From: an uncultured virus (IMG/VR IMGVR_UViG_3300030095_002703)
Taxonomy: Duplodnaviria > Heunggongvirae > Uroviricota > Caudoviricetes
IMG/VR virus record: IMGVR_UViG_3300030095_002703
Direction: 5' to 3' (one strand)
Length of the DNA stretch: 64,000 nucleotides
The notes under the pieces were generated by a model. That model saw only the letters and a program-made list of their open reading frames with translations. It was not told where the DNA came from and ran no database searches. A program made the translations under genes and the position numbers. How positions within the stretch are numbered: position 1 is the first letter of the stretch; each line of letters starts with the position of its first letter. Shown here piece after piece: positions 1-51,789 of the stretch.

Positions 1-316
1 CCCCGCCGTTAATCATATCCTTTAATACTTCGCGGATATGCTCAGATAATTGGTCAGTCTCTAATTTAACGCCAATACGTTCATCGATAAACTTGCATAA
101 CCCCGCCGTCATATCGTAACCAAATGAACCTTTATAGCTATCTACTTCTACGCGCATTTGTGAATTAACACGTTCAAGTTCTTCGACATGTTCTTTTAAG
201 TTTTTAATATCCACCGCCGCCGCTCTAATATCCGCGCCAGTTGAATCGCGTCCGGCTTCGATGCTATCCGCCGCAAGACGGTCCAAGTAATCAATATCTG
301 TTTTTAATTCGATCAT
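1..316 (-). CDS. Early-region hypothetical protein (3' end runs off window)
   Basis: Read manually: MIELKTDIDYLDRLAADSIEAGRD..., open to position 1; ACTACGGAG RBS and sigma70-like promoter upstream. Confidence 0.8.
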   Translation of the reverse strand, partial: MIELKTDIDYLDRLAADSIEAGRDSTGADIRAAAVDIKNLKEHVEELERVNSQMRVEVDSYKGSFGYDMTAGLCKFIDERIGVKLETDQLSEHIREVLKDMINGG

Positions 317-367
317 AGTTATTACTCCGTAGTTTAAAGTTAAACGGCTTGCCCGCCGTTGTATGGG

Positions 368-397
368 ATTATATAAGATAACTTTATAAAAAGTAAA
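368..397 (-). promoter_or_regulatory. sigma70-type promoter TTTACT-N18-TATAAT overlapped by two TATRVGAY boxes
   Basis: Hexamers read directly; boxes at 362-369 and 372-379. Confidence 0.65.
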
Positions 398-404
398 CCC
401 CAGC

Positions 405-431
405 AAAAAAGCCCGCACAATGGCGGGCTTT
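405..431 (-). terminator. Rho-independent terminator after DUF932-like gene
   Basis: AAAGCCCGC-cattgt-GCGGGCTTT plus T-tract on minus strand. Confidence 0.8.
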
Positions 432-452
432 CGTTTTGCGTTGTTGGTTAGT

Positions 453-1643
453 TTATGCGGCTACTTTATCCAGTAACGCGCCCGCCTTCCGTTCAATTTC
501 GATCCGGCTATCTTGGTGCGGAATGTCTCGCGCTATTGCGGTGATGGCTTGCGCGGCGTCCCAAACCGTTTCGACCGGTCGACCTTCTTCTTTCAAGTGT
601 CTAGCGTTCGCGGCTTTCGCCATGCGTCCAGATAATCCGGCGCGTTTGTTTAAAAACTCCAGACGGCTTTCGTCATCGTGCGCAATCTTGGCGGCTTTCG
701 CGGCTTGCACTCCCTCGATGAATGTCGAAGTCGCACCATGCGCAAAGCTTTCCAATGCTGGCCGTGCTTCCATCGCGAAACGATCCGGAGCAAATTTAGT
801 ATGGCGGATTTTAATTTCTTGGAAATTCTCAACGCCCCAAAGGTTTCGATTCATGCAAACCCCGCGCAAATACATGGCGGCAATACCCGCCGTTTTGCTA
901 CCGGTTTCACTGTTCCATGCATAAAACCCGCGAAACATTAAATCGGGCTCCCCGTTCGCAAGCTTGCCCACTTCGATAGGGTTACGATCATCAACCAAGA
1001 AAACAAAAACATCGCGGTCGCTGGCGAATAACGTAGTCGTGTCCATAGTGACGGGTACGTCCGGATCATAAACGGCTAACCCGTTCTCGGTTCCCGTCAT
1101 CATGCCCGGAACTTTCCAACGTCCGCCGGATTGCTCGACTAGGTTTTTAACCGGTTCAAGTATTTCCCAGTCAAATATTCGGCCATAGTCCGGACCCGTT
1201 GCCGCACGTAGTTCGCCGCCTTCGTTCTGGCTACCGTATACCTTAACCAATTCACGGCCACGGTTATAACGCAAACCCCACTGGATACAGTCCGCTGCTA
1301 ATGGTGCAGGCAAGTCCCGAAGATATCCGGCAGGCGCTCCCGATAGCTGGGACAATTGTCCAAAGCTCCAATTTGTTGGGGTGTTCACGTGATCGCGATA
1401 ATTATCGTCTTTGTACTCAACCCGCAAATCCCCATAACTTGGATTATCTTGATCTAGTTCGCCGATAATCTGGATTTTATGAGTATCGACCGTGCGGCTG
1501 GTCATCCGCTGGGCGTCATTCTTTTTAAAAGCCAGCATATTGTCTAGCGTCAAAAACTTTTGATCGTCCGGACGGCTAAACCATTGGCTAGATACTGCGC
1601 TATTTCCTATGCCATGCGCAAAAGCATTAGTTTGATAAGTCAT
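453..1643 (-). CDS. DUF932-family phage/plasmid protein
   Basis: 396 aa; VSSQWFSRPDD N-terminus, YGRIFD, FASDRDVFVFL, WNSETGS, VCMNR, IRHTK motifs recalled for DUF932 proteins. Confidence 0.7.
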   Translation of the reverse strand: MTYQTNAFAHGIGNSAVSSQWFSRPDDQKFLTLDNMLAFKKNDAQRMTSRTVDTHKIQIIGELDQDNPSYGDLRVEYKDDNYRDHVNTPTNWSFGQLSQLSGAPAGYLRDLPAPLAADCIQWGLRYNRGRELVKVYGSQNEGGELRAATGPDYGRIFDWEILEPVKNLVEQSGGRWKVPGMMTGTENGLAVYDPDVPVTMDTTTLFASDRDVFVFLVDDRNPIEVGKLANGEPDLMFRGFYAWNSETGSKTAGIAAMYLRGVCMNRNLWGVENFQEIKIRHTKFAPDRFAMEARPALESFAHGATSTFIEGVQAAKAAKIAHDDESRLEFLNKRAGLSGRMAKAANARHLKEEGRPVETVWDAAQAITAIARDIPHQDSRIEIERKAGALLDKVAA

Positions 1644-1743
1644 ATTGTTTACTCCGTAGTAAATAAAAACGGGGGCGGAATTGCTCCCGTCCCCGATAAT
1701 ATCGCATAAAGTTATATATGATGCAAGTTAATTTTTAAAAAAG

Positions 1744-2457
1744 TTATTCCGCTCCAATATCCCCAGCAACATGGTGACGGATGATCGAACGCGGCGGCAA
1801 TGATTTAGCAAACCTTAAAAGCTTTTGGCCGTCCGTTTCCTCCGGTTGATCGGCTTTGCTAGTCGCTACCCAATGCAGTCGCACGTTTCCGCCATCGGCA
1901 TAACATCCGCCGCGGGTATCTTGGTCCGCTGCTTTTTTCTTAGCTGCACCATGCGCAGTAAATCCAACAATAAAATCCCGGTCTAGACGTGCGCAAAGTG
2001 GATCGCCGTTTCCGCAATCGCGGCAGCTAAACCCGTCACGATATTCCGCCGGACAACGGACAATTTTTTTATTGAATGGTGCGTCCCCGTATTTTTTCCC
2101 TTGCCAGAATTTATCCGGCACAACGCAAACGGATGGAACCCCGTTATAAATAGATGCGGAAGCAGCGCCCAAACTATCGGCGCTAAAATTAATTACCGTT
2201 TTACCTTTACGCAATTTTTTGCCCCAGCCATAAACGTTCGGATCAAAATGCGAATAAGTAAATGATTGACCTTTATTTGGTACGGCATCCAATAACGCGT
2301 CCAGATAATCCCCGTCAATTTTTTTCGAGCCCTTGCCGCTGCAATTCATTTTGCAAGCTGCCGGACAAGTCGCATATTTTTCCCCGTTGCCAGCGCGGTA
2401 GGTTACTGCCATACCTTTAGTTTTTTCGGCCCTGCTTGTTTCTACTGTCTTTAACAT
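1744..2457 (-). CDS. Cys-rich Gp88/DUF7227-like protein, probably Fe-S or Zn binding
   Basis: TCPAAC, CPAE..SCRDC..LC, IVGFTAHG, GCYA..G..HW, RHHVAGD motifs; start placed at MLKTV (2457) behind GGGGGCAACC. Confidence 0.55.
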   Translation of the reverse strand: MLKTVETSRAEKTKGMAVTYRAGNGEKYATCPAACKMNCSGKGSKKIDGDYLDALLDAVPNKGQSFTYSHFDPNVYGWGKKLRKGKTVINFSADSLGAASASIYNGVPSVCVVPDKFWQGKKYGDAPFNKKIVRCPAEYRDGFSCRDCGNGDPLCARLDRDFIVGFTAHGAAKKKAADQDTRGGCYADGGNVRLHWVATSKADQPEETDGQKLLRFAKSLPPRSIIRHHVAGDIGAE

Positions 2458-2505
2458 GGTTGCCCCCATAGTTGTGTATAAGATATATCGCATACCTTAC
2501 ACCAT

Positions 2506-2531
2506 AAAAAAGCCCGGAGTCAACCGGGCTA
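2506..2531 (-). terminator. Terminator hairpin overlapping the -35 (TTGACT) of the next promoter
   Basis: AGCCCGG-ttgact-CCGGGCT followed by T-tract on minus strand. Confidence 0.7.
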
Positions 2532-2535
2532 ATTT

Positions 2536-2673
2536 TTATTTTTTTATAGGCTTTTGTTTTATACGCGGTTGTGGCCTTCGATGCGGTCGCGGTTGCGTTC
2601 GATTGCGTTCAAATTCCTCAACGGCATCCGATCCATGTTTAAGCTTTGCCCACCATTTAAAAATAAAAAACAT
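2536..2673 (-). CDS. 45-aa basic hypothetical protein (below ORF-track cutoff)
   Basis: MFFIFKWWAKLKHGSDAVEEFERNRTQPRPHRRPQPRIKQKPIKK; AACTACGGAGG RBS and its own promoter. Confidence 0.7.
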   Translation of the reverse strand: MFFIFKWWAKLKHGSDAVEEFERNRTQPRPHRRPQPRIKQKPIKK

Positions 2674-2697
2674 TTGTCCTCCGTAGTTTATTAATGA

Positions 2698-3177
2698 CTA
2701 TGGGATTGTATGCGATGTTGTGGGACATATCAAGTTAAAAACTTCAAGCCAGTCAATTGTGCCCGCTACGTGGTGGAACGGTTTAACTTTCAATCCTTCC
2801 AGCTTTAGGTCAACCGCCTCGTTGCCGGGGTAAATAAATAGTTGTTCGGGATGGTTTTTAGTTTTGTGCTTTCTAATCATGACCCATACGCTGGCATGTC
2901 CATGCGTAGTAAGCCACGCTACTTGGTGGGGTCGTAAGTCAACCGCGTTACCTGCGGTCGCTTTTAATTCTACAAAATGAAAGTTACCTAACTCATCACA
3001 TAACACGACGTCCGGCACTCCGGGCATCGCCCAAGTTTCAAGCCGTGTTGCTTTCAAGTTCCTCCCAGTCTTCTCCATCCCCGTCTTCATCTGCCTCCAA
3101 AAGTCGGCTTCTCGCTTTGTCGCGGTTCTGGGGATTGCTCTCTCCTTCGGGAGTAATGTCGATAGTGATCGGGGCAT
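2698..3177 (-). CDS. PD-(D/E)XK nuclease, VRR-NUC/Holliday-junction-resolvase-like (start uncertain)
   Basis: RLE..PGVPD..FVELK..LRPHQVAW motif set. Confidence 0.75.
   Translation of the reverse strand: MPRSLSTLLPKERAIPRTATKREADFWRQMKTGMEKTGRNLKATRLETWAMPGVPDVVLCDELGNFHFVELKATAGNAVDLRPHQVAWLTTHGHASVWVMIRKHKTKNHPEQLFIYPGNEAVDLKLEGLKVKPFHHVAGTIDWLEVFNLICPTTSHTIP
2705..2733 (-). promoter_or_regulatory. sigma70 promoter TTGATA-N17-TACAAT with three operator-like boxes
   Basis: Near-consensus hexamers; boxes at 2699-2706, 2709-2716, 2719-2726. Confidence 0.75.
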
Positions 3178-3661
3178 AGCTTTGTTTTATCTCCTTGAGC
3201 GCCTTCAACACTTCGTCCTTACTCATACTGTCAATGCTGCCAGTGCGAATTTCGCTCTTACTTACATATATGTCACCTTGCGCTTGCCCCCGCCGGTATT
3301 CTGCTTGAACGGCTGCACTATAAGCGCCGTTGTTTAATGCCATATCACGGATAGTTTGAAGGTCCCGTAAATGGCGTTGGTAGTTAACACCAAACTTTTC
3401 ATCTAACTCCGCACGATAAGCTTGAATGGCTGACACAACATGCGGGCTAATATTAGCGTTAGTTAATTCATATGCTCTAGTATGAGCGGACCCCGCAGGG
3501 TATCCAGCATTGATTGCTGCTTCCCGCATTGTGATCTGGCCGTCTTTCGATACAAGTTCTTTTACAAACAGTTCTTGCTTTCGAGTAAGCGGCTGCGCTT
3601 TTGTTGCTTTCGGTCTTCCTACTCGTTTCCTTGCAGTAGGAGCAACACTTTTACTAGGCAT
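3038..3661 (-). CDS. terS: Terminase small subunit-like HTH protein
   Basis: LTRKQELFV..AAINAGY..AHTRAYEL, typical TerS N-terminal HTH. Confidence 0.7.
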   Translation of the reverse strand: MPSKSVAPTARKRVGRPKATKAQPLTRKQELFVKELVSKDGQITMREAAINAGYPAGSAHTRAYELTNANISPHVVSAIQAYRAELDEKFGVNYQRHLRDLQTIRDMALNNGAYSAAVQAEYRRGQAQGDIYVSKSEIRTGSIDSMSKDEVLKALKEIKQSYAPITIDITPEGESNPQNRDKARSRLLEADEDGDGEDWEELESNTA

Positions 3662-3782
3662 ATAGTTCTCCAGTTATTTGGCGATAGTTTGCCATAAACT
3701 AAACCCGTTTGTCATATATATACAAGAAATAAAAATAAATAAAAAAATCATTCAGCGCCCTTATACGCAGTAATCCCCTTTT

Positions 3783-3893
3783 GGTTACATAAACTCTGGT
3801 ACGGTTACATTTTTGTTTTTCACTTATGTAACTGTAAATCTCTATATATAACAAAGCTTTAACTGCTCTGGTTACACGGTTACACCGGTTACA
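3783..3893. repeat. GGTTACA iteron cluster in AT-rich non-coding DNA (origin or packaging-site candidate)
   Basis: GGTTACA at 3783, 3803, 3870, 3878, 3887; inverted TGTAAC at 3827. Confidence 0.7.
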
Positions 3894-3987
3894 CCTATTT
3901 TAACAAAAAATTATTTTTTTTATTTTGCTCTATATATATGTAAATGACGTTTATTTGTGCCGTGGACCGCGAGGCAAGAGGGGTGGG

Positions 3988-4101
3988 TCACCGTCCTCCA
4001 AAAAACCATATGGCAAACCATCCGCCGCCCACGATCAGGAAGAGCAGCACGACGTGCCACCATTCTGTTTCATCTCCACCGTTGTACTCTTTCCAGCCCA
4101 T
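3988..4101 (-). CDS. 37-aa single-pass membrane peptide
   Basis: MGWKEYNGGDETEWWHVVLLFLIVGGGWFAIWFFGGR; extended -10 TGaTAAGAT 6 nt before ATG. Confidence 0.5.
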   Translation of the reverse strand: MGWKEYNGGDETEWWHVVLLFLIVGGGWFAIWFFGGR

Positions 4102-4123
4102 GGGGCCATCTTATCACAGGATG

Positions 4124-4152
4124 AAAAAAAACCCCCGATCCGAAGACCGGGG
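4124..4152 (-). terminator. Rho-independent terminator
   Basis: CCCCGGTC-ttcg-GATCGGGG followed by T8 on minus strand. Confidence 0.85.
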
Positions 4153-4164
4153 GAAAAGGGGTAT

Positions 4165-4467
4165 TCATATCGTCGCGGAAGGATGCACAGAAAAATAATC
4201 CATACGGTCGTCCCATTGAAAAGTGTGCTCTTCCCAAACTGGTGCTTCATCAGCGAGTCGGTTTTCGATAGTGGGAGAGGAGGTCCATGCCTTGAGGTTT
4301 AACTTTAAACTCCACTTTAACTGGTCGGCTTTTTCTTTCCAGTAATCGGCTTCTTTTCTGCCTTCCCACTCGTCTTCTTCTGCCCAGAAAGAACAAAGGT
4401 CGAAACAAGCTTGATCGCTCAATGAGCCGTCTCTCATGCGTAGAATCGCGGGCCTTTTACCATTCAT
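4165..4467 (-). CDS. Hypothetical protein
   Basis: 100 aa; GGAGGA RBS; overlaps upstream gene end. Confidence 0.65.
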   Translation of the reverse strand: MNGKRPAILRMRDGSLSDQACFDLCSFWAEEDEWEGRKEADYWKEKADQLKWSLKLNLKAWTSSPTIENRLADEAPVWEEHTFQWDDRMDYFSVHPSATI

Positions 4468-4768
4468 TTTGTTTATCCTCCGCTAAGTAAACACGCTTCA
4501 TGGTTTTTGTCTTGAAGAAGCCTTTGTAGTCTGGATGCTCGTGCATAAACAGTCGAGCATAAAGCGCGATGAAGTCGTTGGATATTTTGTACTCGTTACC
4601 GGTGGTTACGATCATTGCTTCCCACCGGATGCGATTAACAATAAGCCATGCGGAAAGTTTGCGGTGTCCTTTTCGAATAGCTTGGAAGGTAAACTTTTTA
4701 AATAGCTCATAGAACTCTGGGTTCTCTTTGTGCCAAGTCCACCATTTTGTTTTCAGATCGTCTGTCAT
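4457..4768 (-). CDS. Conserved phage hypothetical protein
   Basis: WHKENP..F..F..A..RIRW..YKISND..YAR pattern recalled from small phage proteins; ATGA coupling. Confidence 0.75.
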   Translation of the reverse strand: MTDDLKTKWWTWHKENPEFYELFKKFTFQAIRKGHRKLSAWLIVNRIRWEAMIVTTGNEYKISNDFIALYARLFMHEHPDYKGFFKTKTMKRVYLAEDKQNEW

Positions 4769-5178
4769 CTAAACAACCAAACCGCGAGTCCGGCAAGTAG
4801 TCCTCCGATGGCAGCCATTACCGCAAAGTGATGTTGGACGTACCATGGTTCGGGGTGCGTGGTGGATTCTTCGTCATCCCCGCGATTTTCAAACTCCTCA
4901 CGAGCAATAACAACTTCTGACACGGCCTCTTGTACTTCTTCTTTTATTTCTTCAGCCATGGCGTTTACTGTTTCAGCCTGCTTATGCAAGTTGTTGCGCA
5001 GACAATAGTCCAGCACTTCGTTTTCGAACCAGCGGTTTACCGTCTTTGGCCCGCGGGTCGCGGTCGTTGGTACTTTGATCGGGGATGGAAACAGACCTTG
5101 CTTTACCTTTCGATAAATAGTCGGTTTACTTACTTGTGTGACTTTGCACACCTCATCAATTGATATTAGTTTTTTCAT
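4765..5178 (-). CDS. alpA: AlpA/excisionase-like winged-HTH regulator with C-terminal transmembrane helix
   Basis: LISIDEVCKVTQVSKPTIYRKVKQGLFPSPIK..RWFENEV; C-terminal FAVMAAIGGLLAGLAVWLF. Confidence 0.7.
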   Translation of the reverse strand: MKKLISIDEVCKVTQVSKPTIYRKVKQGLFPSPIKVPTTATRGPKTVNRWFENEVLDYCLRNNLHKQAETVNAMAEEIKEEVQEAVSEVVIAREEFENRGDDEESTTHPEPWYVQHHFAVMAAIGGLLAGLAVWLFR

Positions 5179-5233
5179 AACGTTCTCCGTGTTGGGTTAC
5201 ATGGAGTAGTGTATGGGATTTTATATAGAAAAG

Positions 5234-5410
5234 TCAACCACGTAGAATGCGCTGCCATGATTTTTCAATCTCAGAGCAGAGTTGTTGTCTCTTCTCTGGT
5301 GTTAAATCTTCATCCATTTCGATTGTTTTTAGTTGATCGTTGACTACACGATTGATGGTTGAGATGGCCCACGACCAGTCTATTTCGCTTATACGCTTTT
5401 CGGCTTCCAT
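5234..5410 (-). CDS. 58-aa hypothetical protein, probable homolog of 56171-56377
   Basis: MEAEKRISEIDWSWAISTINRVV...SWQRILRG; GAGGA RBS. Confidence 0.8.
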   Translation of the reverse strand: MEAEKRISEIDWSWAISTINRVVNDQLKTIEMDEDLTPEKRQQLCSEIEKSWQRILRG

Positions 5411-5421
5411 AATTTTCCTCT

Positions 5422-5495
5422 AAAAGAATGACCCCAGCCGGGGGCAACCGTACTGGGGTCGGGGTCAACTACGGAGAACATGATTACCATGTTCC
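5422..5495 (-). ncRNA. Putative trans-acting sRNA with two anti-RBS seeds
   Basis: Promoter TTGATT-N18-TATACT (5501-5530); 5' hairpin GAACAUG/CAUGUUC; seed CUCCGUAGUU; terminator GACCCCAG/CUGGGGUC with GGUUGCCCCCGG apex and U-tract. Confidence 0.7.
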
Positions 5496-5533
5496 AGCGT
5501 AGTATATACAGTTTGATATGGGATAATCAACAC

Positions 5534-5686
5534 TTAATCGCATATTTCACAAACATTTTCAGGGTATTCTCCACCGTCTAGCGGATCAATAATTGTAAGC
5601 TCACAGTTTTTACATTTACGAATAAGTTGATCTTCGGTCATCGCAATAAACGTTAGGGCTTGTTCACATTTAGGACACGTGTTATT
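5534..5686 (-). CDS. Small Zn-ribbon protein (start uncertain, 5686 or 5734)
   Basis: CPKC...CKNC...CEIC. Confidence 0.6.
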   Translation of the reverse strand, partial: NNTCPKCEQALTFIAMTEDQLIRKCKNCELTIIDPLDGGEYPENVCEICD

Positions 5687-5873
5687 CATTAGGTTTTTGT
5701 GAAAATGTCCCGGTTCCCCCCGGATTGGCTTCATTGTGTGCTGCCTCCATATACCATTCGAAGACTAGCCGAAGCTGCCCACCAATGGTTCTGCCTTCTT
5801 TTTTTGAAAGCTCCTTGATTTCTTCATACACTTCTCGTGGTACGAGAATGCTTTTCCAACGTGTTGTATCCAT
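5682..5873 (-). CDS. Ribbon-helix-helix DNA-binding regulator
   Basis: WKSILVPREVYEEIKELSKKEGRTIGGQLRLV fits the RHH beta-strand/helix/helix pattern; promoter TTGCGT-N17-TATTAT at 5910-5938. Confidence 0.7.
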   Translation of the reverse strand: MDTTRWKSILVPREVYEEIKELSKKEGRTIGGQLRLVFEWYMEAAHNEANPGGTGTFSQKPNE

Positions 5874-5965
5874 TTGTTCTGTCTCCGATGCCCCCGGAAT
5901 ATATCTACGATAATATACTAAGATATATAAGAACGCAAGAAATCACTTCGCCGAAGCGGGGTTGG

Positions 5966-6181
5966 TTAGTCGAGGTAAAAGCTAATACTGTCGCCTTCAC
6001 CAAAATGATGGAAATCTATCGTGGGAGTCCGCCCCGGCTCATCGTAATTATGTTTTACAATCTTCACTTCGGTGAACAAATCGCCGTCAAAATCCTCAAA
6101 ACTAAACTTTGCCTTACACTGTTTGTTAAGGTGCTTTTCCACAATATCCATCAGCTCGTGGTAAAAAATTTCTATTTTCAT
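5966..6181 (-). CDS. Hypothetical protein
   Basis: Start at MKIEIF behind GAGGA; TTGACA at 6232-6237 with two operator boxes. Confidence 0.65.
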   Translation of the reverse strand: MKIEIFYHELMDIVEKHLNKQCKAKFSFEDFDGDLFTEVKIVKHNYDEPGRTPTIDFHHFGEGDSISFYLD

Positions 6182-6238
6182 GTTGCCATCCTCTATAGTT
6201 GAAAGAACGTTATCGCATAATGTCGCATACATGTCAAC

Positions 6239-8134
6239 TTATTTTGCTTCGCCCCATGAAGGACCAATTTCCACGTCACACTTAGATGGGACTTCTAAAG
6301 GCACCGCTTGTTCCATGACTCTAGCGACCGTATTAGCTTCGTCAACATTCTTGACCGACATAGCAATTTCATCGTGTATCTGGAGCATGGGCAGTATTCC
6401 CTGCTTATACAGATCGACCATTGCTTTCTTAGTCATATCCGCAGCAGATGCTTGGATCAGCCTGTTTAAAGCTTTGTAGGTGTATGCACGTTTAAGACGG
6501 GTCGTAGGCCCATATTCGTCTACTGCTTCCCTGTACGGCAGCGCCTTGTTCATAGCAAACGTATCGGGCTCCCACAAATCAAATCGACATTTACGACCAA
6601 GCAGTGAGTGCAGTGATCCGCCAGAGGATTTTTCGTTCAGTCGGTTCATAACGCCAGTCATAAGACCTTTAACAAACGGAACGCGGTCATGGTATTGTTT
6701 GGTCAGACCTTTTGCTTCTTCAACCGATACATCAAGTTGTTCGGATAACTTGTTGACTCCCATGCCATACATCATCCCAAGATTTATTGTCTTGGCCTGT
6801 TTCCGCGGTATGTTAGCCATCTCCGCCACCATTGTATGGAAGTCCGTGTCCGGGTTTTCGTTGTAGGCGCTAACAAAATCCTTGGCACCCTCCAATGCTA
6901 CTCCTCGCATTTTACCGTATACATGCGCATAATGTACCAAAATGCGCGGTTCTTGTTGACTGAAGTCAATGGCCGCCCAATGTTCGCCTTCTTCTGGTAA
7001 GAATAGCGAACGAATCATTGGACCCAGTTCAGGATCGCGGGCCGGGATTTGTTGAAGGTTAGGGTTGGACATTGATATACGTCCCGACACTGTGCCTCCA
7101 TCGTCAGAACGGATTTGATTTATATGGGAGTGTATTCGACCGTCAGCGTGGCAGTGTTTCATGATTGTATTGATGAAAGTGCCGGATGTCTTATTCAGAT
7201 TCCTAGCTTGAGTCACCAACTGCGCGAGTGGATGGTCATGCTCTTGGAGGAAGAGTTTTGTAAAACTAGGTGCGCCCTTTTCAGTACGTGGATAGTTGAC
7301 TCCGATTTTATCGAACGCTTTAGCGAGAGATTGCGCAGCCCATATTTCAACGTTAGCGCCGCTGATACGCTTGATCTCCTTCAGAACGTCCCGTTCTCTC
7401 TTGAGCAAACTATTCCTCGTTCTCTCGACCTTCTCCGTATCGACCCTAACGCCACGCATCGTCATATCAACAAGACATGGGAGGAGATCAAGTTCGAGAT
7501 TGGCGATAGGCCACAAGCCCTCTTTGCCAAGTTGAACGGAGAAATAGTTCCAGAGTTCGAGAGTCAGTTCAGCGTCTCCTTCAGCGTAAGGTCCGACATA
7601 CATCGCGGGCATCTTCCACATTTCAGCTTTAGGATCGACACCAAACTCCCTCGCGGCCTCCACTAAACCTTTCTCAGACTTAACTTTTCCCAAGTGGTCG
7701 TAGGCCAGTGCGTTTAAACTGTAACTAAACCGGTTCTCATCTAATAAAGACGCCACCACCATGGTATCTATGATCCGGCCGTTTACTTGAAAGCCCATGT
7801 GCTTTATCCAACCCAAATCATACTGTGCGTTGTGCATAATCTTATCAGCAGGGCATTCAAAGACTTTCTTCAGCCATTTGTTTACCTGCTTTTCATCAAG
7901 GTTGCCTCCGCCAAAGTGGCGGATAGGTATGTAGCCTGACCAATCATCAACAGCTACGGCATAACCAACTACCTCGCCATCACCTGTCGGCCAGCCGGGA
8001 CCGTTCTGTTTTAGGTTCGGGTCCCGTGTTTCAACATCTATTGCTATCTTTTTAGCTGACGTAATGTCAGGTAATTCCAGCGGGGGTATCCATTCACTTT
8101 TTGGGGCGAACATGCTCATTTGTAGTTTTGCCAT
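6239..8134 (-). CDS. polA: Family A DNA polymerase (3'-5' exonuclease + polymerase), Leu at the E. coli 762 position
   Basis: DVET ExoI, HNAQYD ExoII, YAEGD ExoIII, DFSQQEPR motif A, KTINLGMMYG motif B, QIHDE motif C. Confidence 0.95.
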   Translation of the reverse strand: MAKLQMSMFAPKSEWIPPLELPDITSAKKIAIDVETRDPNLKQNGPGWPTGDGEVVGYAVAVDDWSGYIPIRHFGGGNLDEKQVNKWLKKVFECPADKIMHNAQYDLGWIKHMGFQVNGRIIDTMVVASLLDENRFSYSLNALAYDHLGKVKSEKGLVEAAREFGVDPKAEMWKMPAMYVGPYAEGDAELTLELWNYFSVQLGKEGLWPIANLELDLLPCLVDMTMRGVRVDTEKVERTRNSLLKRERDVLKEIKRISGANVEIWAAQSLAKAFDKIGVNYPRTEKGAPSFTKLFLQEHDHPLAQLVTQARNLNKTSGTFINTIMKHCHADGRIHSHINQIRSDDGGTVSGRISMSNPNLQQIPARDPELGPMIRSLFLPEEGEHWAAIDFSQQEPRILVHYAHVYGKMRGVALEGAKDFVSAYNENPDTDFHTMVAEMANIPRKQAKTINLGMMYGMGVNKLSEQLDVSVEEAKGLTKQYHDRVPFVKGLMTGVMNRLNEKSSGGSLHSLLGRKCRFDLWEPDTFAMNKALPYREAVDEYGPTTRLKRAYTYKALNRLIQASAADMTKKAMVDLYKQGILPMLQIHDEIAMSVKNVDEANTVARVMEQAVPLEVPSKCDVEIGPSWGEAK

Positions 8135-8387
8135 TACCTTCTCCACCTAACGCCGCGTACCCGCAAATATCTAACCAAGAATCTGCGTGGTCGGGTGTTA
8201 CGTTTAGTCGGGCAAGTTTAACAGCAATCATGCACTGATAAACTTGCGCTACGGTTACATCTTTACTAAGAATTACAGACCATAACTTTGCTATGCGCTC
8301 ATGGTTTTCGTAAGCATCGCCATACTCCTTTGCTCGTTTACCATTAAGTATCTTCTCTGCATTTTGCAGTATCTGTTCTCGTTTCAT
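8094..8387 (-). CDS. DUF6378-like protein
   Basis: R..EYGD...NH.RIA.LWS...KLAR...H.DS..D..GYAALG pattern. Confidence 0.75.
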   Translation of the reverse strand: MKREQILQNAEKILNGKRAKEYGDAYENHERIAKLWSVILSKDVTVAQVYQCMIAVKLARLNVTPDHADSWLDICGYAALGGEGNGKTTNEHVRPKK

Positions 8388-8418
8388 TAAATGTACCGCT
8401 CAGTTCTAGTTAGTTTTT

Positions 8419-9936
8419 TCATAAGTCATAACTTCTTGACACGTCTTCTGCATCAACAATGTATAAATTTTTCTTGGCACGAGTAACGCCAACGTAAAAA
8501 ACACGGTGTGTATCATCTGGATTTCTTTGAAACTGCGTATCGGCTGCGGGGCTCAAATCCGTAAACAACACCACATTATCCGCCTCACCACCCTTTGATC
8601 CGTGGATGGTGGACGCTGTAATGCGGGGAATCCCATTAAACTTCTCTCCTCTTCGAAGGAGTGCCGTGACATACGCACGGTCGGTATCGGGTAGTTTGTC
8701 CATGGCGCTGGACCAAATCATGTCTTTTGTTGCTTTCAGGCCGTGGTGTTCGGTAAGTTCATCAAACGTTACCAGATCGCTGTCATCGACTCCCGGCAAC
8801 TTCTTAAAGCCACGGGTTAAGCGTTCACCAATTGCCATATAGCTATATATTATACGGGCAACTTGACCAGATATTTCTTTTCCCTTACGCAACTGCTCCC
8901 AACCATTCACCGCTTCGCTTATCTTTTCGCTAATAGATCGTCTGCCGCGGTAGTTAAAAAGGTATCCACTTGACTTTAAGTCGTGAGCTACGGGTGTCAA
9001 CTGATAACCCGCTTGCGATAGGATCAACCAATCGCCTTGTGCCATGTCTAGTGAGTTGATAGTTGTAATGCGCGTCACATTGCCGGGTTCTTCACGGGGC
9101 TCGTAAGCTTTTGGAAATCTTCTGGTTATGCGGCGCACGACATTTTCTGCAACGTTATGCACGTTCTTTGGTATTCGATAAGATTGCGACAGTGTTTCTG
9201 ACCCACCGGGCAAATTAATAAAATGATCTACATCTGCGCCCGCCCAACGATAGATAGCTTGGTCATCGTCACCCGCGCAATACATCTTCTTTGACTTCTT
9301 ATCTAGTAAGTGTGCAATGTCCCATTGTAATGGTGACAAGTCTTGTGCTTCATCTAAGAAACACAGATCAAACTCAGGACAAAACCTTGCATCGCCGTTG
9401 GCAAAATGTTCAAGCATGTCTGTGAAATCGAAAAGCCCCATAGCTTCTTTGTATTCCTTTAAACTTTTACTTACAAAGTTTACGGTATTCCAATCCTGTT
9501 CTACTTCGCTGATGTTATATTGGTCACGCAGATTTACCTTACGCAATCTAGCCAAGTTAATCAGACCAAGCACTGGATCACTACTGGACACCATACTAGG
9601 TATATCATCATCTATAGCAGTATTCTTCTGGCCGCCAAGGTCCACACCTATAGTGCGACTAAGCTCCCGGTAGTTTTCTTCCTGCATAACCTGCTCTGGT
9701 CTTATGTCAGACATGGTGAGCGCCAGACTATGCAGCGTCCTAAAAAAAACAAGGTCTTCCTTTGGGTCTAAGTTAAAACGTGCTGCTGCTCGTTCTTTAG
9801 CCTCGTTAGCTGCCTTGCGTGTAAAAGCTAAGAATGCAATACGCTCTGGTAGAATGCCGTCTTCAAGGGCTTTATCCACCATGTTCAAAAGAGTTGTTGT
9901 CTTTCCTGTGCCCGGTGGACCAAAGATTCTAAACAT
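8419..9936 (-). CDS. UvrD/Rep-like SF1 DNA helicase
   Basis: GPPGTGKT, AFTRKAA, DEAQD, GDDDQAIY, SYR, TIHGSKGGE, YVGVTRA; start set at MFRIFG. Confidence 0.92.
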   Translation of the reverse strand: MFRIFGPPGTGKTTTLLNMVDKALEDGILPERIAFLAFTRKAANEAKERAAARFNLDPKEDLVFFRTLHSLALTMSDIRPEQVMQEENYRELSRTIGVDLGGQKNTAIDDDIPSMVSSSDPVLGLINLARLRKVNLRDQYNISEVEQDWNTVNFVSKSLKEYKEAMGLFDFTDMLEHFANGDARFCPEFDLCFLDEAQDLSPLQWDIAHLLDKKSKKMYCAGDDDQAIYRWAGADVDHFINLPGGSETLSQSYRIPKNVHNVAENVVRRITRRFPKAYEPREEPGNVTRITTINSLDMAQGDWLILSQAGYQLTPVAHDLKSSGYLFNYRGRRSISEKISEAVNGWEQLRKGKEISGQVARIIYSYMAIGERLTRGFKKLPGVDDSDLVTFDELTEHHGLKATKDMIWSSAMDKLPDTDRAYVTALLRRGEKFNGIPRITASTIHGSKGGEADNVVLFTDLSPAADTQFQRNPDDTHRVFYVGVTRAKKNLYIVDAEDVSRSYDL

Positions 9937-10066
9937 TCTTTTCCTTTCGATATATCTGCTGCACTCTCTGTTTAGTGATACCAAATAGTTTTGCTACCGC
10001 CGTCATGGTCATTCGCTCTTTGTCGATTAACCGAACGATTTCTGCATCACGGTCTTTTTTCGACAT
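9929..10066 (-). CDS. 45-aa HTH protein (below ORF-track cutoff)
   Basis: MSKKDRDAEIVRLIDKERMTMTAVAKLFGITKQRVQQIYRKEKNV; fills gap between primase and helicase. Confidence 0.75.
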   Translation of the reverse strand: MSKKDRDAEIVRLIDKERMTMTAVAKLFGITKQRVQQIYRKEKNV

Positions 10067-10071
10067 ACTAC

Positions 10072-11610
10072 TCAAAATGGTGCCTCCTCTTGGTTAAACG
10101 ATGGTGTCTTTAAATCCACGTCAGCACTCTCAAAAGACGGTATCTTCCATACTCGTACAGATCGACCTTTAATTTTCAAGACCATACTGTCTCCGTTTAT
10201 GTCGCGTAGTCGTTGTGCAATTTTATGCGATTTATATTCAAAAAACTTGTTCTTCTTCAGATAGCTCTCGAAGTCTTTCAAACGGAAATAAGTGACTTCT
10301 TCCTCTTCATCTGTCCATGGGCGGCGGAGCAAGATTTCTTCTTTATCCTGCGCTTGCTGTAAATGACTGCAAAACTCTTCAAGGTAATCGTAAAACTGTC
10401 CGCTAATACTGGCGTCTTGTGCTACTTCAATTATTGCGCTTTCGTTATCACGCATTTCTGTCATCAATGTACTAATGCGGCTTTCCCATTGCAGCTTGGC
10501 TACGGACCGCGGCATAAAGTTCAACTGCTCCATGCAAGATTTTTGGAACATAGGCTGGCTCATCAAAGCTTCTGTGTCTAACTCCAATGGTTCGCCGTTA
10601 ACGTCCATAAACCACACAGGAGGGGTAGAGTTATACTTCCGTAGGTTAGCTACCGTAGCGCCCGCTACAGCGGCTCCTATGCCAAATTTGCGGGTGCGGC
10701 ACAGTTCTTTATTGCAATGTGCGCTAATCGGAGCGTCTGAGCATTTATAAGCGTAGTCTTTACGTTCTAATTGTTTAGCAACTATGTTGACTTCAGGTAG
10801 GGGTAAGGGCGGAGATAAATACTCCATGTTGTATTTTAAAATCTCTGATTCCCAGCTATCAGGGAAAGCTTTGCGTAGATATACACCAATATTAAATAGT
10901 CCATTGTTTCTGCCGCCCTCACTTATGCGCTGCTTACAAAGTATCTGTAAACATGGAGGACCATCACGAGCAATAATATCGCTTTCACTTGTGTCTTCTA
11001 CCTGTAATTTGACTACTTGTTCGGGGGTTTGCGCGTGTTTTTTATGTAAAGCAATAAACTCGTCTAAATCAGCAGACGTGCCATCGTCTAAAAATGCGTA
11101 ACGTAATCCATTTTCATGATCGTAATACGGTAGGTTGAGAAAGTTTCCAACGTCACCACGGTCTAGGTGTAATTTAATTTGCTTTGGAAATATTTCGCTT
11201 TCGCCATAACCAAGGGCCGCGGACATGTGTTGCAGAGACTTCTGCATGTCTTTGGCATCAATCCATTCAGTCGTGAATAAAAAGCAGTGCGCTCCACCTG
11301 ATTTGCTGCGGCACACTACTAAAGGTAATTTTAACTTTCTTATCTTGTTGACCAGCATCTTGTGGTCGAGTGGATACTGATCCACATCAATACAACCCCA
11401 CTTACACTGGTTGTCTTCGTTTATTGGGATGATACCCAATCCATTGCCCTTCCCGGACAGATGGTTCTCCCAAAGCTTCTTCGTTCTGGGCTCACGTGTA
11501 ACGCCCGCCTTACCTTGCGTTTTACCGTTGGCGGCGGTCTTTTCTATTTTGAAGTAGCCGTGGGCTTCCTTCAGGCCATCGAATATGGCCATAAATTTAT
11601 CTACTGACAT
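10072..11610 (-). CDS. AEP-superfamily primase with PriCT-like domain
   Basis: WGCIDVD, RSKSGGAH, NLPY, PPCL..EGGRNNGLF; start set at MSVDKF. Confidence 0.8.
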   Translation of the reverse strand: MSVDKFMAIFDGLKEAHGYFKIEKTAANGKTQGKAGVTREPRTKKLWENHLSGKGNGLGIIPINEDNQCKWGCIDVDQYPLDHKMLVNKIRKLKLPLVVCRSKSGGAHCFLFTTEWIDAKDMQKSLQHMSAALGYGESEIFPKQIKLHLDRGDVGNFLNLPYYDHENGLRYAFLDDGTSADLDEFIALHKKHAQTPEQVVKLQVEDTSESDIIARDGPPCLQILCKQRISEGGRNNGLFNIGVYLRKAFPDSWESEILKYNMEYLSPPLPLPEVNIVAKQLERKDYAYKCSDAPISAHCNKELCRTRKFGIGAAVAGATVANLRKYNSTPPVWFMDVNGEPLELDTEALMSQPMFQKSCMEQLNFMPRSVAKLQWESRISTLMTEMRDNESAIIEVAQDASISGQFYDYLEEFCSHLQQAQDKEEILLRRPWTDEEEEVTYFRLKDFESYLKKNKFFEYKSHKIAQRLRDINGDSMVLKIKGRSVRVWKIPSFESADVDLKTPSFNQEEAPF

Positions 11611-11625
11611 TTGTGCCCCCATACG

Positions 11626-11655
11626 AAAAAAACGGCGGGGCTTCATGCCCCGCCG
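11626..11655 (-). terminator. Terminator/attenuator between SSB-like gene and primase
   Basis: CGGCGGGGC-atgaa-GCCCCGCCG followed by T7. Confidence 0.8.
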
Positions 11656-11664
11656 CATGACTAA

Positions 11665-12441
11665 TTAGAACGGTGTTGAACCGCCTTCTTCGTCATCCGT
11701 ATGTTTCACCACAACATCGCCTGCGGTAATACTCTCTGCAAACCCTTTAGCGCGGGTGTACAAAGCTCCATCCTCAATGACTCCTTCGCAGGACATCTCC
11801 CACCCATGCCATGAGCCTTTCGAGTTTTCTTCGGCTACGGTTTTCAGGTGGTAAATGTGGCTATAACGAGGCGGTGTAAACGGCCCCTTCCTACCACTCA
11901 TTGAGCGAGATGCCATCATACTGTTCCACTTGCGGCTTTTTTTAAGCTGCGTGGACTTCATTGCAATAAGGGCAGTCTCCTGTGACCCATCATCATTGAT
12001 GAGAAGTACGAAATGTTGGTGAGTTTCTTCGATGTAATCACCATCACCTTTCACAACATATTCTTTGTTGTCTTCTGGTGATCGTTCCGTCTTTGGACGT
12101 TCCTGACCCGGCTCGTAAATTGCCATAGGCGCACCGCTACCACTGCCACGTGGAGCCCACTGAATAAACCTACGCTGATAAGCACAAGGGACAACTCGAA
12201 CCCCTTCCTTACCTTTATAAGCCGTTCCAGTAACGGTGTTGTATATATCGCCCTTACGAGCATTGACAGATTCGTCATCCAATACAGGATCGTTGCCAGA
12301 CAAAACTTTTAGAAACGGAAGTGCTAAATCTTCTGTTCCCATGTTGTCCATGCCTGCTCCGGCATCCTGCTCCATCATAGCAATGTCAAACACTGCTACT
12401 TCGTTTTTAGCCGCTTCGGCTACTTCTTTTTTCTTTGTCAT
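11665..12441 (-). CDS. Putative single-stranded DNA-binding protein
   Basis: DLALPFLKVL, MKSTQLKKSRKWN, acidic tail ending PF; replication-cluster position. Confidence 0.6.
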   Translation of the reverse strand: MTKKKEVAEAAKNEVAVFDIAMMEQDAGAGMDNMGTEDLALPFLKVLSGNDPVLDDESVNARKGDIYNTVTGTAYKGKEGVRVVPCAYQRRFIQWAPRGSGSGAPMAIYEPGQERPKTERSPEDNKEYVVKGDGDYIEETHQHFVLLINDDGSQETALIAMKSTQLKKSRKWNSMMASRSMSGRKGPFTPPRYSHIYHLKTVAEENSKGSWHGWEMSCEGVIEDGALYTRAKGFAESITAGDVVVKHTDDEEGGSTPF

Positions 12442-13022
12442 TAGTTTTTTCCTCGCTTAATAACTGCGCGTTGACCCACCCATGCTCCAAACAATTCCAT
12501 TGGAAAATCCTCTCCTGCCTCACAACGTTCTTTTACGAACGCACGAAGCGTTTGAGGGTGAACCTCTGTTTTTTGATCGGGGACATAACCTTGCTGTTGC
12601 GCGAAAGCAGCAAAGGCTCCAGCTTGATCGTCCTCACCACGGCCAAACTGACACGCGACAGTATTCTTAATAATGTCATCGTATCCGTTATCGCGTAGCC
12701 ACTCGTAAGCTTCAGGACGTTTATCTACTAGAATGGAAGCACCATATGTTTGTTTAACCTCTACGGTTGAACCGTCATCTAGTGCAAATGAAGACATGCC
12801 GATCTCTGCAAGCATCGAAGGCATTTCTTCGTCCGTAAGTTTAATCAAAGCTTTCTTCTCTTCTTTGAGCGATTGCTCAAGGTCAGAAATTTTGGCTTCT
12901 TTGTCACGGATTGTTCTGGCCAACGCAGCTACCGAAGTAAGCCCCTGCTGGTCAATTTTTTCGATGGATGCAGCTTTGTCTTCAAAGTCCTGTTCCATCA
13001 ATTTTGCTAGGTCGTCACTCAT
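12441..13022 (-). CDS. Conserved replication-cluster hypothetical protein
   Basis: Coiled-coil N-terminus, WLRDNGYDDIIKN, VHPQTLRAFVKE. Confidence 0.8.
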   Translation of the reverse strand: MSDDLAKLMEQDFEDKAASIEKIDQQGLTSVAALARTIRDKEAKISDLEQSLKEEKKALIKLTDEEMPSMLAEIGMSSFALDDGSTVEVKQTYGASILVDKRPEAYEWLRDNGYDDIIKNTVACQFGRGEDDQAGAFAAFAQQQGYVPDQKTEVHPQTLRAFVKERCEAGEDFPMELFGAWVGQRAVIKRGKN

Positions 13023-13061
13023 CGTGTTTCTCCTTTCGTGGTTAAAGGCACCGTTTGGGCC

Positions 13062-13102
13062 TTGACAATTAAAGATAATATCTTATACAATCTGAATGTC
13101 AA
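13062..13102. promoter_or_regulatory. Overlapping divergent sigma70 promoters
   Basis: Plus: TTGACA-N18-TACAAT; minus: TTGACA-N16-TATTAT; ATCTTATA box at 13080-13087. Confidence 0.75.
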
Positions 13103-13127
13103 GCGTTTTAGAAAAATAGGGGCAACA

Positions 13128-14576: not shown

Positions 14577-14782
14577 TAAATTTTTGTTTCTTCCGGGTCT
14601 CTCATGGCTGGTACACAGTAAGCTACCACAGGGTGATCGTAAGTACCGTCGCCTTGATTACTCAAAGTATTTGCAAACCAAATGCAATGTCGGAGGTCTT
14701 CCCAAACACCATATTCAGTCAAAGATTGTACCTTTCCGTCTTCCCATATTTCTACCATCAAGGCAAAAACTAATATTTTCAT
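14573..14782 (-). CDS. Small hypothetical protein, last gene of late operon
   Basis: 69 aa, hydrophobic N-terminus, C..FA..L..AYCVP. Confidence 0.6.
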   Translation of the reverse strand: MKILVFALMVEIWEDGKVQSLTEYGVWEDLRHCIWFANTLSNQGDGTYDHPVVAYCVPAMRDPEETKIY

Positions 14783-14788
14783 AAATCA

Positions 14789-42512: not shown

Positions 42513-43127
42513 TTATTCTCCTACAATGCCGGTACCCATTTGATGGTACGGTAGGTTAAATTTAACTAAAACATCAGTCTTAGCGTCTCCAATGGCAGAA
42601 CCAGTCTTGGTTACAAAACCAATTACTTTAAATGCCTTAGTAGCGGTAGCAGTAGTAGCATCCAATGCAACATTAGACTTACCAGTAGTCGTATTTACAG
42701 AAGTAGTTGCATGCTGTGCGCCAGTCAAAGGAGCGTTATGTCCCAAAGCAGTCTGAGCAATAGCTCCATCAGCCTGTACTTGGAAGGTTACACCGGGGTC
42801 AGTTACCACGTAAGCAGTAGCGTTAGCAGTGCCTGAGGGGTAATACTGAGCAAAAATCAACTGCCCTTCAGAATTGACGTATTCACAACCAACAAACACA
42901 CCTAGAGCGCCAATACTGCTGCCCCCCAAATTGTTAGTAGTTGCATCTGCGCCAGTACCAGAAGCGAGTTGCACATATCCTGCATTTATTTCAACAATAG
43001 AACCGTAGCCAATGTTCTGAGCTACACCAGCAGGAGTAATAAGAAAAGCATCACGGGCACCTGCATAAGGTGTACCGTCAGCTTTACGTACGGGGACAAG
43101 CCCGTATGGGGAAGCTGTAGCAGCCAT
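42513..43127 (-). CDS. Capsid-associated (cement/decoration-like) protein
   Basis: PYGL.PV..GVFVGCEY..DP...F.VQ; directly upstream of capsid gene. Confidence 0.6.
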   Translation of the reverse strand: MAATASPYGLVPVRKADGTPYAGARDAFLITPAGVAQNIGYGSIVEINAGYVQLASGTGADATTNNLGGSSIGALGVFVGCEYVNSEGQLIFAQYYPSGTANATAYVVTDPGVTFQVQADGAIAQTALGHNAPLTGAQHATTSVNTTTGKSNVALDATTATATKAFKVIGFVTKTGSAIGDAKTDVLVKFNLPYHQMGTGIVGE

Positions 43128-51228: not shown

Positions 51229-51236
51229 CCAAATAT

Positions 51237-51262: not shown

Positions 51263-51283
51263 CGCCCATCAAAAAGTACCTAC

Positions 51284-51755: not shown

Positions 51756-51789
51756 CTTCTCCCCACTTCCTGACACGTATACCCATAAC

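Follow-up and report, generated by a model that had tools for sequence, protein, structure and literature searches.

What does a short unit in the early region of a phage genome do when it carries its own promoter and terminator, and when its unpaired bases are complementary to the leaders of the phage's own genes? Such a unit lies on the minus strand of IMG/VR record IMGVR_UViG_3300030095_002703, 64,000 nucleotides (nt) of DNA from an uncultured virus of the Caudoviricetes, which as a whole is called the window here. It occupies a gap of 123 nt (5411-5533) between two minus-strand open reading frames (ORFs). A sequence-only reading of the window had interpreted it as a phage small RNA (sRNA) with two seeds antisense to the ribosome-binding regions of about nine early and replication genes. 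Comparison with related viral contigs makes it likely that the locus encodes a new, phage-encoded, trans-acting base-pairing RNA, which would pair with the leaders of early and replication genes and lower their translation.

Anatomy and family of the RNA unit

A sigma-70-type promoter, TTGATT-N18-TATACT, is found at 5530-5501 on the minus strand, with the -35 hexamer at 5530-5525 and the -10 hexamer at 5506-5501. It matched the consensus at 9 of 12 positions, in a test made at the level of the consensus only. The predicted RNA of about 74 nt (5422-5495, minus strand) has inferred ends, which lie about 7 nt after the -10 hexamer and at the end of the U-tract AUUCUUUU (5422-5429). The 74 nt from 5495 to 5422 were predicted to fold into exactly two hairpins (-30.0 kcal/mol), and a 90-nt version had a folding z-score of -2.55, with 3 of 200 shuffled sequences folding as well. 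By folding, the 5' hairpin, GAACAUG-GUAAU-CAUGUUC (5476-5494), has 7 base pairs (bp). The terminator hairpin (5430-5460) has a 7-bp outer stem, a 3-bp inner CGG/CCG stem and a UUGCCC hexaloop at 5447-5442, with the stem arms at 5460-5453 and 5437-5430. Single-stranded CUCCGUAG(UU) sits between the two hairpins; seed 1, CUCCGUAGUU, occupies 5467-5476, and its conserved core CUCCGUAG occupies 5476-5469. The U-tail at the 3' end is a feature expected of Hfq-dependent sRNAs. Promoter, hairpins, linker and U-tract were thus all found where the sequence-only reading had placed them, and its view of the second seed had to be revised: what had been described as an open 12-nt apex is a 6-nt loop, UUGCCC, because the pairs that close the hexaloop covary among relatives (GG/CC, GC/GC, CUC/GAG).

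A search with the neighbouring HTH protein led to four relatives (75-81% identity), all of which have the unit. A pattern made of the two seeds matched 79 viral contigs, 43 of them distinct. Since this pattern fixes the seeds by construction, the retrieval was repeated with the 17-nt upstream operator/-35 sequence alone. This gave 95 loci with 49 distinct sequences, among which 41 had the unit, three had another RNA and five were unrelated occurrences of the 17-mer. Both seeds were exact in 25 of these 41 units and variant in 16.

The alignment of 48 distinct versions of the unit showed two covarying stems and two fixed unpaired motifs, the CUCCGUAG core and the TTGCCC loop. In seed 1, alignment positions C48, T49, C50, T53, A54 and G55 were invariant, and the variants were C-to-U changes or the form UCCCGUAG. 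The -10 hexamer was TATAAT in 18 units, TATACT in 16 and another TAnnnT-like sequence in 14; A19 was invariant, while T18, T20, A21 and T23 were at least 90% conserved. In the terminator stem, 97.3% of 480 cells were paired, compared with 83.1 +/- 0.9 after column shuffling (reached in 0 of 500 shuffles), and pairing fell to 38-57% when the partner was slid. Compensatory changes were present at 7 of the 10 terminator pairs. Of the 48 units, 46 folded a 5' hairpin of 5 bp or more, built from 39 distinct sequences, and G-U pairs were frequent in the 5' hairpins of the relatives (e.g., GAGCAUG/CAUGUUC). The minus strand was taken as the transcribed one because of the position of promoter and U-tract, which are present on this strand only, the U-G asymmetry, and the folding of the sense strand: the terminator alignment had 12 U-G cells and 2 A-C/C-A cells, and the sense strand outfolded the antisense strand in 36 of the 48 units (Wilcoxon p = 1.1e-5). 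At least five T followed the stem within 9 nt in 35 of the 48 units by automatic count; the other 13 were mostly miscounts. These observations point to a minus-strand RNA gene with a promoter and a terminator of its own, as had been proposed.

The same covariation bears on whether the locus encodes a protein on the opposite strand. A plus-strand ORF of 33 codons (ATG at 5479, 5479-5580), for which AACTACGGAG would be the ribosome-binding site, exists in the window and in one relative (L001), and antisense ORFs begin at the same place in two others (87 amino acids in G002 and 141 in G006). However, only 3 nt separate its GGAG from the ATG, the start codon is absent in L023, L025 and L026, G003 has no such ORF, and the covarying hairpins freely alter the putative codons. 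It is therefore extremely unlikely that this ORF is what the locus encodes.

No Rfam family reached the gathering score across the whole window. With E up to 10, the sole match in 5380-5560 was an 11-bit fragment of DUF805b, and the Rfam covariance model of C4 antisense RNA (P1 c4 / P4 CI) gave no match. The unit had no match in GenBank phages at E up to 1, and a pattern of operator plus core had 0 matches in a genome set of 185,579 prokaryote species. In the literature, the seed sequences occurred only in unrelated contexts (primers and the like) among the matches listed, and topic searches gave no description of this RNA among the matches listed. These results agree with the earlier statement that it is not a described family, and the Infernal comparison with Rfam that had been suggested found none. 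From these comparisons, the unit is a member of a real and new family of putative phage sRNAs. Two looser searches were discarded: the two-seed pattern matched four contigs of metagenome-assembled genomes in the species genomes, all by chance within coding sequence, and the pattern TCCCGTAG-N10-35-TTGCCC gave chance matches only. At two loci (L012 and L039), the RNA is present with both seeds and a good terminator, and the usual operator and promoter are absent upstream. In three others (L128, L153 and L136, on contigs G007-G009), a longer structured RNA without CUCCGUAG or UUGCCC is driven by this operator and promoter.

Leader motifs and their covariation with the RNA

Motifs were counted in six genomes or contigs, namely the window and G002-G006. 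CUACGGAG, the complement of the seed 1 core, occurred 21 times, and four of these were the antisense of the units themselves. Thirteen of the 17 other sites were 5-10 nt before the start codon of an ORF with 40 codons or more, on the strand of the unit. Of all 4-mers that precede GGAG at candidate starts, CUAC was the most frequent (15 of 219, including two from the antisense of the unit). It has no complementarity to the 3' end of 16S ribosomal RNA, and is therefore outside the ordinary Shine-Dalgarno sequence. CUACGGAG is thus an over-represented, extended Shine-Dalgarno sequence of early leaders. Moreover, GGGCAA ranked first among 60 hexamers of the same composition in the leader regions (-50 to +3), with 26 occurrences in 361 regions compared with 5.19 +/- 3.72; the runner-up, ACGGAG (19), is the other target motif.

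GGGCAA appeared in two settings. As a ribosome-binding site, it was conserved at the primase (5 of 5, as GGGGGCA or GGGCAA), the SNF2 helicase (3 of 3, with GGGCAA kept in G005 and G006) and DUF7227 (4 of 4), and the unusual primase site was found in all five genomes carrying the unit. It was also the hexaloop of leader hairpins upstream of CUACGGAG, on 12 or more different stems spread over at least four families of gene leaders. Its presence in the hexaloops of covarying leader hairpins suggests loop-loop kissing. The leader order, loop-spacer-CUACGGAG, mirrors the order CUCCGUAG-linker-loop in the RNA, and therefore an antiparallel two-site complex would be possible. The spacers of leader and RNA are not complementary, and only the two motifs are common to both, which argues against a mere inverted duplication. 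The proposal that the seeds match motifs of the start regions thus held for both seeds in the six genomes; in the window taken alone, the energy test was not significant for seed 2.

These features also bear on the idea that the locus works as DNA, i.e., as an inverted promoter-leader cassette with double-stranded sites for a regulator and no RNA pairing. The plus strand does have the layout of a leader (hairpin with GGGCAA as its loop, AACTACGGAG, then ATG), and the region is rich in common 8-bp operator-like motifs. However, two short motifs are shared and the spacers are not, the stems covary in an RNA-like manner with G-U asymmetry, and C-to-U variants of the seed fit wobble pairing. Furthermore, each type has one strict orientation, with GGGCAA invariably on the coding strand in leaders and UUGCCC invariably on the transcribed strand in units. 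We consider a DNA-level explanation very unlikely.

The pairing proposed for the RNA is best judged from lineages in which the seed has changed. Among relatives collected by their primase, 79 of 80 loci were analysed; L277 was left out, as its match begins at residue 38. These relatives include a sister lineage in which the unit reads AUCCCGUAGUUGG and the loop UUUGCCCCC, in the same neighbourhood (RHH gene, zinc-ribbon gene, unit). It comprises seven loci: an 18-mer search gave 10 matches, three of which (L397, L399 and L402) were due to chance and contributed no leaders. In this lineage, whose seed is UCCCGUAG, the leaders carried ACGGGAG 18 times (12 distinct, from at least seven genes) and ACGGAG three times (two distinct). 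In the canonical lineage (66 loci, 364 kb), ACGGAG was found 84 times (46 distinct) and ACGGGAG 0 times. The association of lineage with leader type had a Fisher value of 6.5e-11 on distinct leaders, with kinship ignored. The duplex CUCCGUAG:CUACGGAG becomes UCCCGUAG:CUACGGGA, in which two adjacent pairs, C-G and U-A, are replaced by U-A and C-G. In some sister-lineage leaders the U of CUAC is missing, and their pairing would leave one base bulged. Seed variants CUCU and CUUC are C-to-U changes, and pairing with G is kept as wobble. The sequence-only reading had made its proposal depend on seeds and leaders co-varying in relatives, and in the sister lineage both have changed together. We regard this covariation of RNA and leaders as decisive evidence for what would be a direct pairing between them.

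The primase start was compared between loci with and without the unit. With the unit (17 loci), the start was of the GGGGCA type in 14, GGGGGU in two and ordinary in one. Six loci that span 14 kb or more lack the unit; of these, five had an ordinary Shine-Dalgarno sequence and one (L234, possibly truncated) had GGGGCA; 56 loci were too short to judge. The primase start in contig G007, with the longer RNA, is of the ordinary AGGA type and not GGGGGCA, a single case too thin to count. In the UCCC lineage, the primase start GGGGGGCAAAC (four loci) matches its own loop GUUUGCCCCC one base beyond the canonical pair, which is only a hint.

All nine complementary sites named by the sequence-only reading exist in the window, and seven of these leaders stood out for at least one seed when each duplex energy (in kcal/mol) was compared with those of 200 shuffled targets (at most 2 of 200 reached it). 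All sites are on the minus strand except that of the SNF2 helicase. Seed 1 finds AACUACGGAG at 325-334, 8 nt before the ATG (316) of a gene that encodes MIELK... and runs off the window (-16.1, 1/200). The same leader has a hairpin, AACGGC-GGGCAA-GCCGUU (343-360), whose loop (349-354) is complementary to the hexaloop of the RNA; the duplex of the loop segment was -21.6 kcal/mol (0/200), and homologous leaders retain GGGCAA on different stems (CGACGGG/CCCGUCG). Further seed 1 sites are ACUACGGAG at 1652-1660, before the DUF932 gene (start 1643; -14.6, 2/200), and AACUACGGAG(G) at 2679-2688, before an ORF of 45 amino acids (start 2673; -18.8, 1/200). In the leader of an HTH_17 gene, CAAC-ACGGAGAAC (5182-5194) would form 4 + 9 pairs with one bulged base (-16.6, 0/200), and this pairing requires opening of the 3' arm of the 5' hairpin.

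For seed 2, the DUF7227 leader forms a hairpin, UAUGG-GGGCAA-CCAUG (2455-2470), which encloses the GGGGG ribosome-binding site and the start codon and whose stem covaries to UAUGA/UCAUA in G004. Its GGGGGCAACC (2467-2458) is complementary to the apex of the RNA (-24.0, 0/200). The RHH leader has CCGGGGGCA at 5889-5897, 16 nt upstream of the ATG (5873) and with a separate GGAG in between (-23.5, 0/200), and the SNF2 helicase (start 13128, plus strand) has GGGGCAAC as its ribosome-binding site at 13119-13126 (-16.8, 0/200). The primase ribosome-binding site is GGGGGCA at 11614-11620 (start 11610). The longest primase ORF begins at 11658, and the start at 11610 gives 512 amino acids, the same length as in relatives. 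A terminator and, after it, the conserved GGGGGCA-N3-ATG indicate that 11610 is the real start. The ninth site, AACUGGAGAAC at 3665-3675, belongs to the leader of a terS-like gene and is a doubtful target.

The sites called 'alpA' (the HTH_17 gene) and 'terS' in the sequence-only reading are real, and the names rest on weak family matches. The 'small terminase' label at 3038-3661 had a Pfam score of 25.5 bits, below the cut-off of 26.1, and the gene is in the early region. An unannotated ORF of 201 amino acids (49211-49816) directly upstream of the large terminase gene may be the true small subunit.

Across the window as a whole, CTCCGTAGTT with at most one mismatch occurred 7 times compared with 3.11 +/- 2.01 expected, which 8 of 100 shuffles reached and which alone is not significant. 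The 12-mer apex with at most two mismatches occurred 8 times compared with 2.22 +/- 1.45, and 0 of 100 shuffles reached this number. The 11-nt seed 1 had nine leaders at or below -12 kcal/mol (2.33 +/- 1.50 expected) and four at or below -14 (0.41 expected); 4 of 300 permutations reached each of these numbers, there being only 60 distinct permutations, with the true seed among them. The energy enrichment at window starts expected by the sequence-only reading was thus seen for seed 1 at strict thresholds and was not seen for seed 2 or at lenient thresholds, as detailed below.

Control of the unit and the proposed mechanism

An inverted repeat, TATGCGAT-N10-ATCGCATA, spans the -35 hexamer ahead of the RNA gene and is conserved upstream of the unit in relatives as TATGCGAT-N10-ATC(C/G)CATA. 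On the minus strand of the window, the left half-site TATGCGAT (5537-5544) overlaps the last codons and the stop codon (5536-5534) of the upstream ORF (5734-5534, minus strand), which encodes a zinc-ribbon-like protein of 66 amino acids; the right half-site ATCCCATA (5517-5524) is immediately 3' of the -35 hexamer. ATCCCATA has six exact copies in the window compared with 1.59 +/- 1.24 expected (0 of 100 shuffles), and four of them are at minus-strand promoters (362-369, 2699-2706, 5212-5219 and 5517-5524). TATGCGAT is also found near 2486. This 8-bp motif, ATC(C/G)CATA / TATGCGAT, marks promoters of the early region and is present at 12 places between 7.4 and 19.6 kb in the complete relative G003. 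It is probably the operator of a phage regulator, for which the RHH and zinc-ribbon genes next to the repeat are candidates. Half-sites are common to the promoters of the RNA and of its targets, and therefore RNA and targets are probably co-regulated, which would suit a limiter or a timed shut-off.

In the mechanism that we propose, the host polymerase would start at the near-consensus promoter overlapping the operator-like repeat and stop at the intrinsic terminator. The RNA would accumulate as a discrete species and present two motifs, CUCCGUAG(UU) between the hairpins and the UUGCCC hexaloop of the terminator. The linear seed would pair with CUACGGAG, which contains the Shine-Dalgarno sequence GGAG. 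The hexaloop would pair with GGGCAA where it serves as the ribosome-binding site, as GGGGGCAA-N-AUG in the primase, SNF2 helicase and DUF7227 leaders, and elsewhere it would kiss the GGGCAA hexaloop of a leader hairpin. In leaders with both motifs, their order would fit a two-site antiparallel complex. Such pairing in vivo would cover the ribosome-binding site and lower the translation of the whole set, as a limiter or an early shut-off. We infer repression because the paired bases are ribosome-binding bases, and lowered translation is the most likely outcome of the pairing.

Several results weigh against this proposal. The covariation of seed and leaders reflects one lineage split and hence a single evolutionary event, repeated in many leaders, although each leader nevertheless had to change separately. 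A lineage with the seed CUCUGUAG (G005, G010 and G011) had no informative leaders in contigs that end too soon, and its only CUACAGAG is within a coding region, at codons 6-8 of the HTH gene. One locus (L264) has the unit and an ordinary primase start. In the window, the terS-like leader (-11.8, 17/200) and the primase leader (27/200) did not stand out, and neither did the control leaders (polA, UvrD and the gene 3' of the unit), so that two of the nine proposed targets are weak there. With lenient thresholds and segments of 17-20 nt, there was no enrichment: the 20-nt segment had 20 leaders compared with 18.2 +/- 5.0 (117 of 300 reached), and the apex segment had 26 compared with 33.1 +/- 5.0 (283 of 300). 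The 10-nt seed 2 was not significant in the window at any threshold (28 of 300 at -14 and 32 of 300 at -16). As for the RNA itself, the 5' hairpin uses the first C of seed 1 in its closing pair, pairing beyond the hexaloop requires the inner stem to open, and the U-tract is truly weak in about 5 of the 48 units. Finally, 20 sequencing runs from 11 studies contain the region or part of it, of which 19 are listed as DNA or of unknown type and one as RNA (share 0.09). The sole RNA run (X20) has one contig of 227 nt, 97% alike, at 5093-5312. It covers the leader of the HTH gene and the end of the gene 3' of the unit, lies outside the unit and is silent on it; its depth is 2.4, DNA carry-over is possible, and contigs cannot show transcript ends.

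The weak U-tracts are relevant to a different explanation: as a regulated leader or attenuator, the unit would serve the genes downstream of it, its promoter-proximal terminator would limit read-through, and its conserved unpaired motifs would bind a phage antiterminator or another RNA-binding protein, with the match to other leaders being incidental or due to binding of the same protein there. In units with a weak U-tract, the RNA may stay joined to the downstream mRNA, mainly as its 5' leader. Promoter, short RNA, terminator and the next ribosome-binding site follow each other closely (within 12 nt), and in the window the downstream ORF (5410-5234, minus strand, 58 amino acids) has its GAGG and ATG (5410) directly after the U-tract. 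Antitermination in these phages is also hinted at by leaders of relatives (L021/G006 at about 42,880-42,945, L028, L032, L042, L053, L061, L067 and L073), in which CGCTCTTT(A/G)ACAATTTAA comes after a hairpin whose loop is GGGCAA. This element closely resembles the boxA of Escherichia coli rrnB, whose sequence was taken from an oligonucleotide in PMC2176067. The leaders belong to a gene encoding 'MSE...' or 'MKKFTFEP', and in them hairpin and boxA-like element together may act in antitermination, as a nut- or rrn-like signal, or else as an enhancer that binds S1. In the window, the boxA-like element had two one-mismatch matches compared with 1.59 expected, neither of them at a leader. Against an attenuator, the gene 3' of the unit varies among relatives (at least four kinds), while the unit and its upstream neighbour do not. 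A protein specific for GGGCAA loops would fail to recognise their complement, UUGCCC, and the covariation of seed and leaders would be unexplained. Furthermore, no conserved antiterminator pairing was seen; a CCGUA/UACGG match in the window, considered along with a likeness to the 3' end of 16S ribosomal RNA, was dropped, as the pairing is not kept in relatives. An attenuator is therefore rather unlikely.

The target sites themselves allow the effect of the pairing to be questioned. The RNA could pair as proposed and activate or stabilise its targets, or alter transcription elongation through the nut-like hairpins. Some leader hairpins enclose the start codon, and that of DUF7227, for example, could be opened by the RNA; the leaders with hairpin and boxA-like element in relatives also fit. 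There is a precedent in the phage sRNA PreS of lambda, which according to excerpts of a preprint activates dnaN by exposing its ribosome-binding site (bioRxiv 10.1101/2024.10.31.621285). However, in 8 of the 9 window targets the paired bases are Shine-Dalgarno or other ribosome-binding bases, where pairing normally blocks 30S binding, and the window has no boxA-like element beyond chance. We regard activation or an effect on elongation as unlikely, and translational repression by pairing as the better account of the locus.

A broader role for such a repressing RNA is possible but doubtful. It could be the hub of an RNA-based timing circuit for the early regulon, made together with its targets from operator-controlled promoters, kissing GGGCAA and placing its seed on the extended Shine-Dalgarno sequence, and shutting off translation as well as transcription antiterminated through nut-like hairpin and boxA. 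As part of the same doubtful picture, seed and address might co-evolve as a lock and key that separates phage lineages.

The window derives from marine metagenomes and is a phage genome, with genes for DNA polymerase A, an AEP primase, UvrD- and SNF2-type helicases, portal, large terminase and major head protein. By primase, its closest cultured relative is Phage DSL-LC04 (51.7% identity). No integrase was found among the protein families of the window, and no prophage copy in the genome set of 185,579 species. The nearest record (G001) has 42% of the 31-mers of the window in common, none of them with 1-16000, and it had no match to window positions 5200-5760 or 1-16000. A second replication module is present at 50626-64000 on the plus strand, opposite to the first and beyond the large terminase gene (47665-49218). 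Besides a second family-A DNA polymerase (59350-61194), it encodes an exonuclease, a nucleotide kinase, an ATPase and an HNH endonuclease. It is possible that two phage genomes, or joined contigs, make up the window. An extra CTACGGAG is found in this module at 61167-61174 (plus strand), 3 nt before the GTG of an ORF of 92 codons (61178-61456).

Comparison with known regulators

The family is large: primase relatives of this phage group number more than 596 in IMG/VR, and the unit is present in well over 100 contigs. Its natural compensatory variants of seed and leader are ready controls for reporter assays. Conserved, non-canonical ribosome-binding sites such as GGGGGCAA can be footprints of RNA regulators in phage genomes.

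The closest mechanistic parallel is OxyS and fhlA in E. coli. Excerpts of PMC5793797 describe a two-site kissing complex in which the terminator loop also pairs at the ribosome-binding site. Both RNAs are short and have two exposed elements, including the loop of a Rho-independent terminator, with pairing at or near the ribosome-binding site and a block of translation, which for the phage RNA would be the predicted outcome; for OxyS this likeness is drawn from the same excerpts. The two are not related in sequence or family (no Rfam match). In contrast to OxyS, the phage RNA has a linear seed over the Shine-Dalgarno sequence, and the partner of its loop is a hexaloop conserved in several leaders. 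Moreover, it is encoded by a phage, and its putative targets are the phage's own genes.

Among phage RNAs, the c4 antisense RNA of P1 has two complementary loop pairs, and the CI RNA of P4 is comparable. According to excerpts of PMC8198154, full repression of ant in P1 needs the C4 antisense RNA, and a C4 binding site is located upstream of icd/ant. The c4 RNA of P1 and P7 (immI operon) resembles the candidate described here in being a small phage RNA that pairs near a ribosome-binding site and is in the same transcription unit as its targets. It differs in having one target region, in its own operon, and in serving lysogenic immunity, whereas here at least seven separate leaders carry the motifs.

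In phage T4, the protein RegA lowers the translation of many early mRNAs at their initiation regions. The function proposed here is alike, but RegA is a protein, while the putative regulator of this locus is an RNA that would recognise its targets by base pairing. Such an RNA would be the counterpart of protein translational repressors.

DicF is another base-pairing sRNA borne by a phage. PreS/LPR1 of lambda and StxS are short, terminator-ended phage sRNAs that act by base pairing, mainly on host targets or on one phage transcript, as far as excerpts of a preprint describe them (bioRxiv 10.1101/2024.10.31.621285). In contrast to these three, the unit has conserved seeds that match, and co-evolve with, a set of leaders belonging to the phage itself. 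For SdsR, RseX and ArrS, excerpts of PMC11979758 report that the terminator loop is needed for regulation of fepA through the structure of its 5' untranslated region, 'likely without base-pairing', whereas the terminator loop described here is exactly complementary to leader loops and ribosome-binding sites. Few regulatory RNAs are encoded by phages, and those described in these partial sources have host genes or one phage transcript as their targets. The unit is a candidate for a single small RNA that addresses many of its phage's own early and replication mRNAs by a shared leader code. The two-site antisense mode is already known from OxyS-fhlA and P1 c4; what appears to be new is an RNA family with a multi-leader regulon in its own phage and a co-evolving code of seed and leader.

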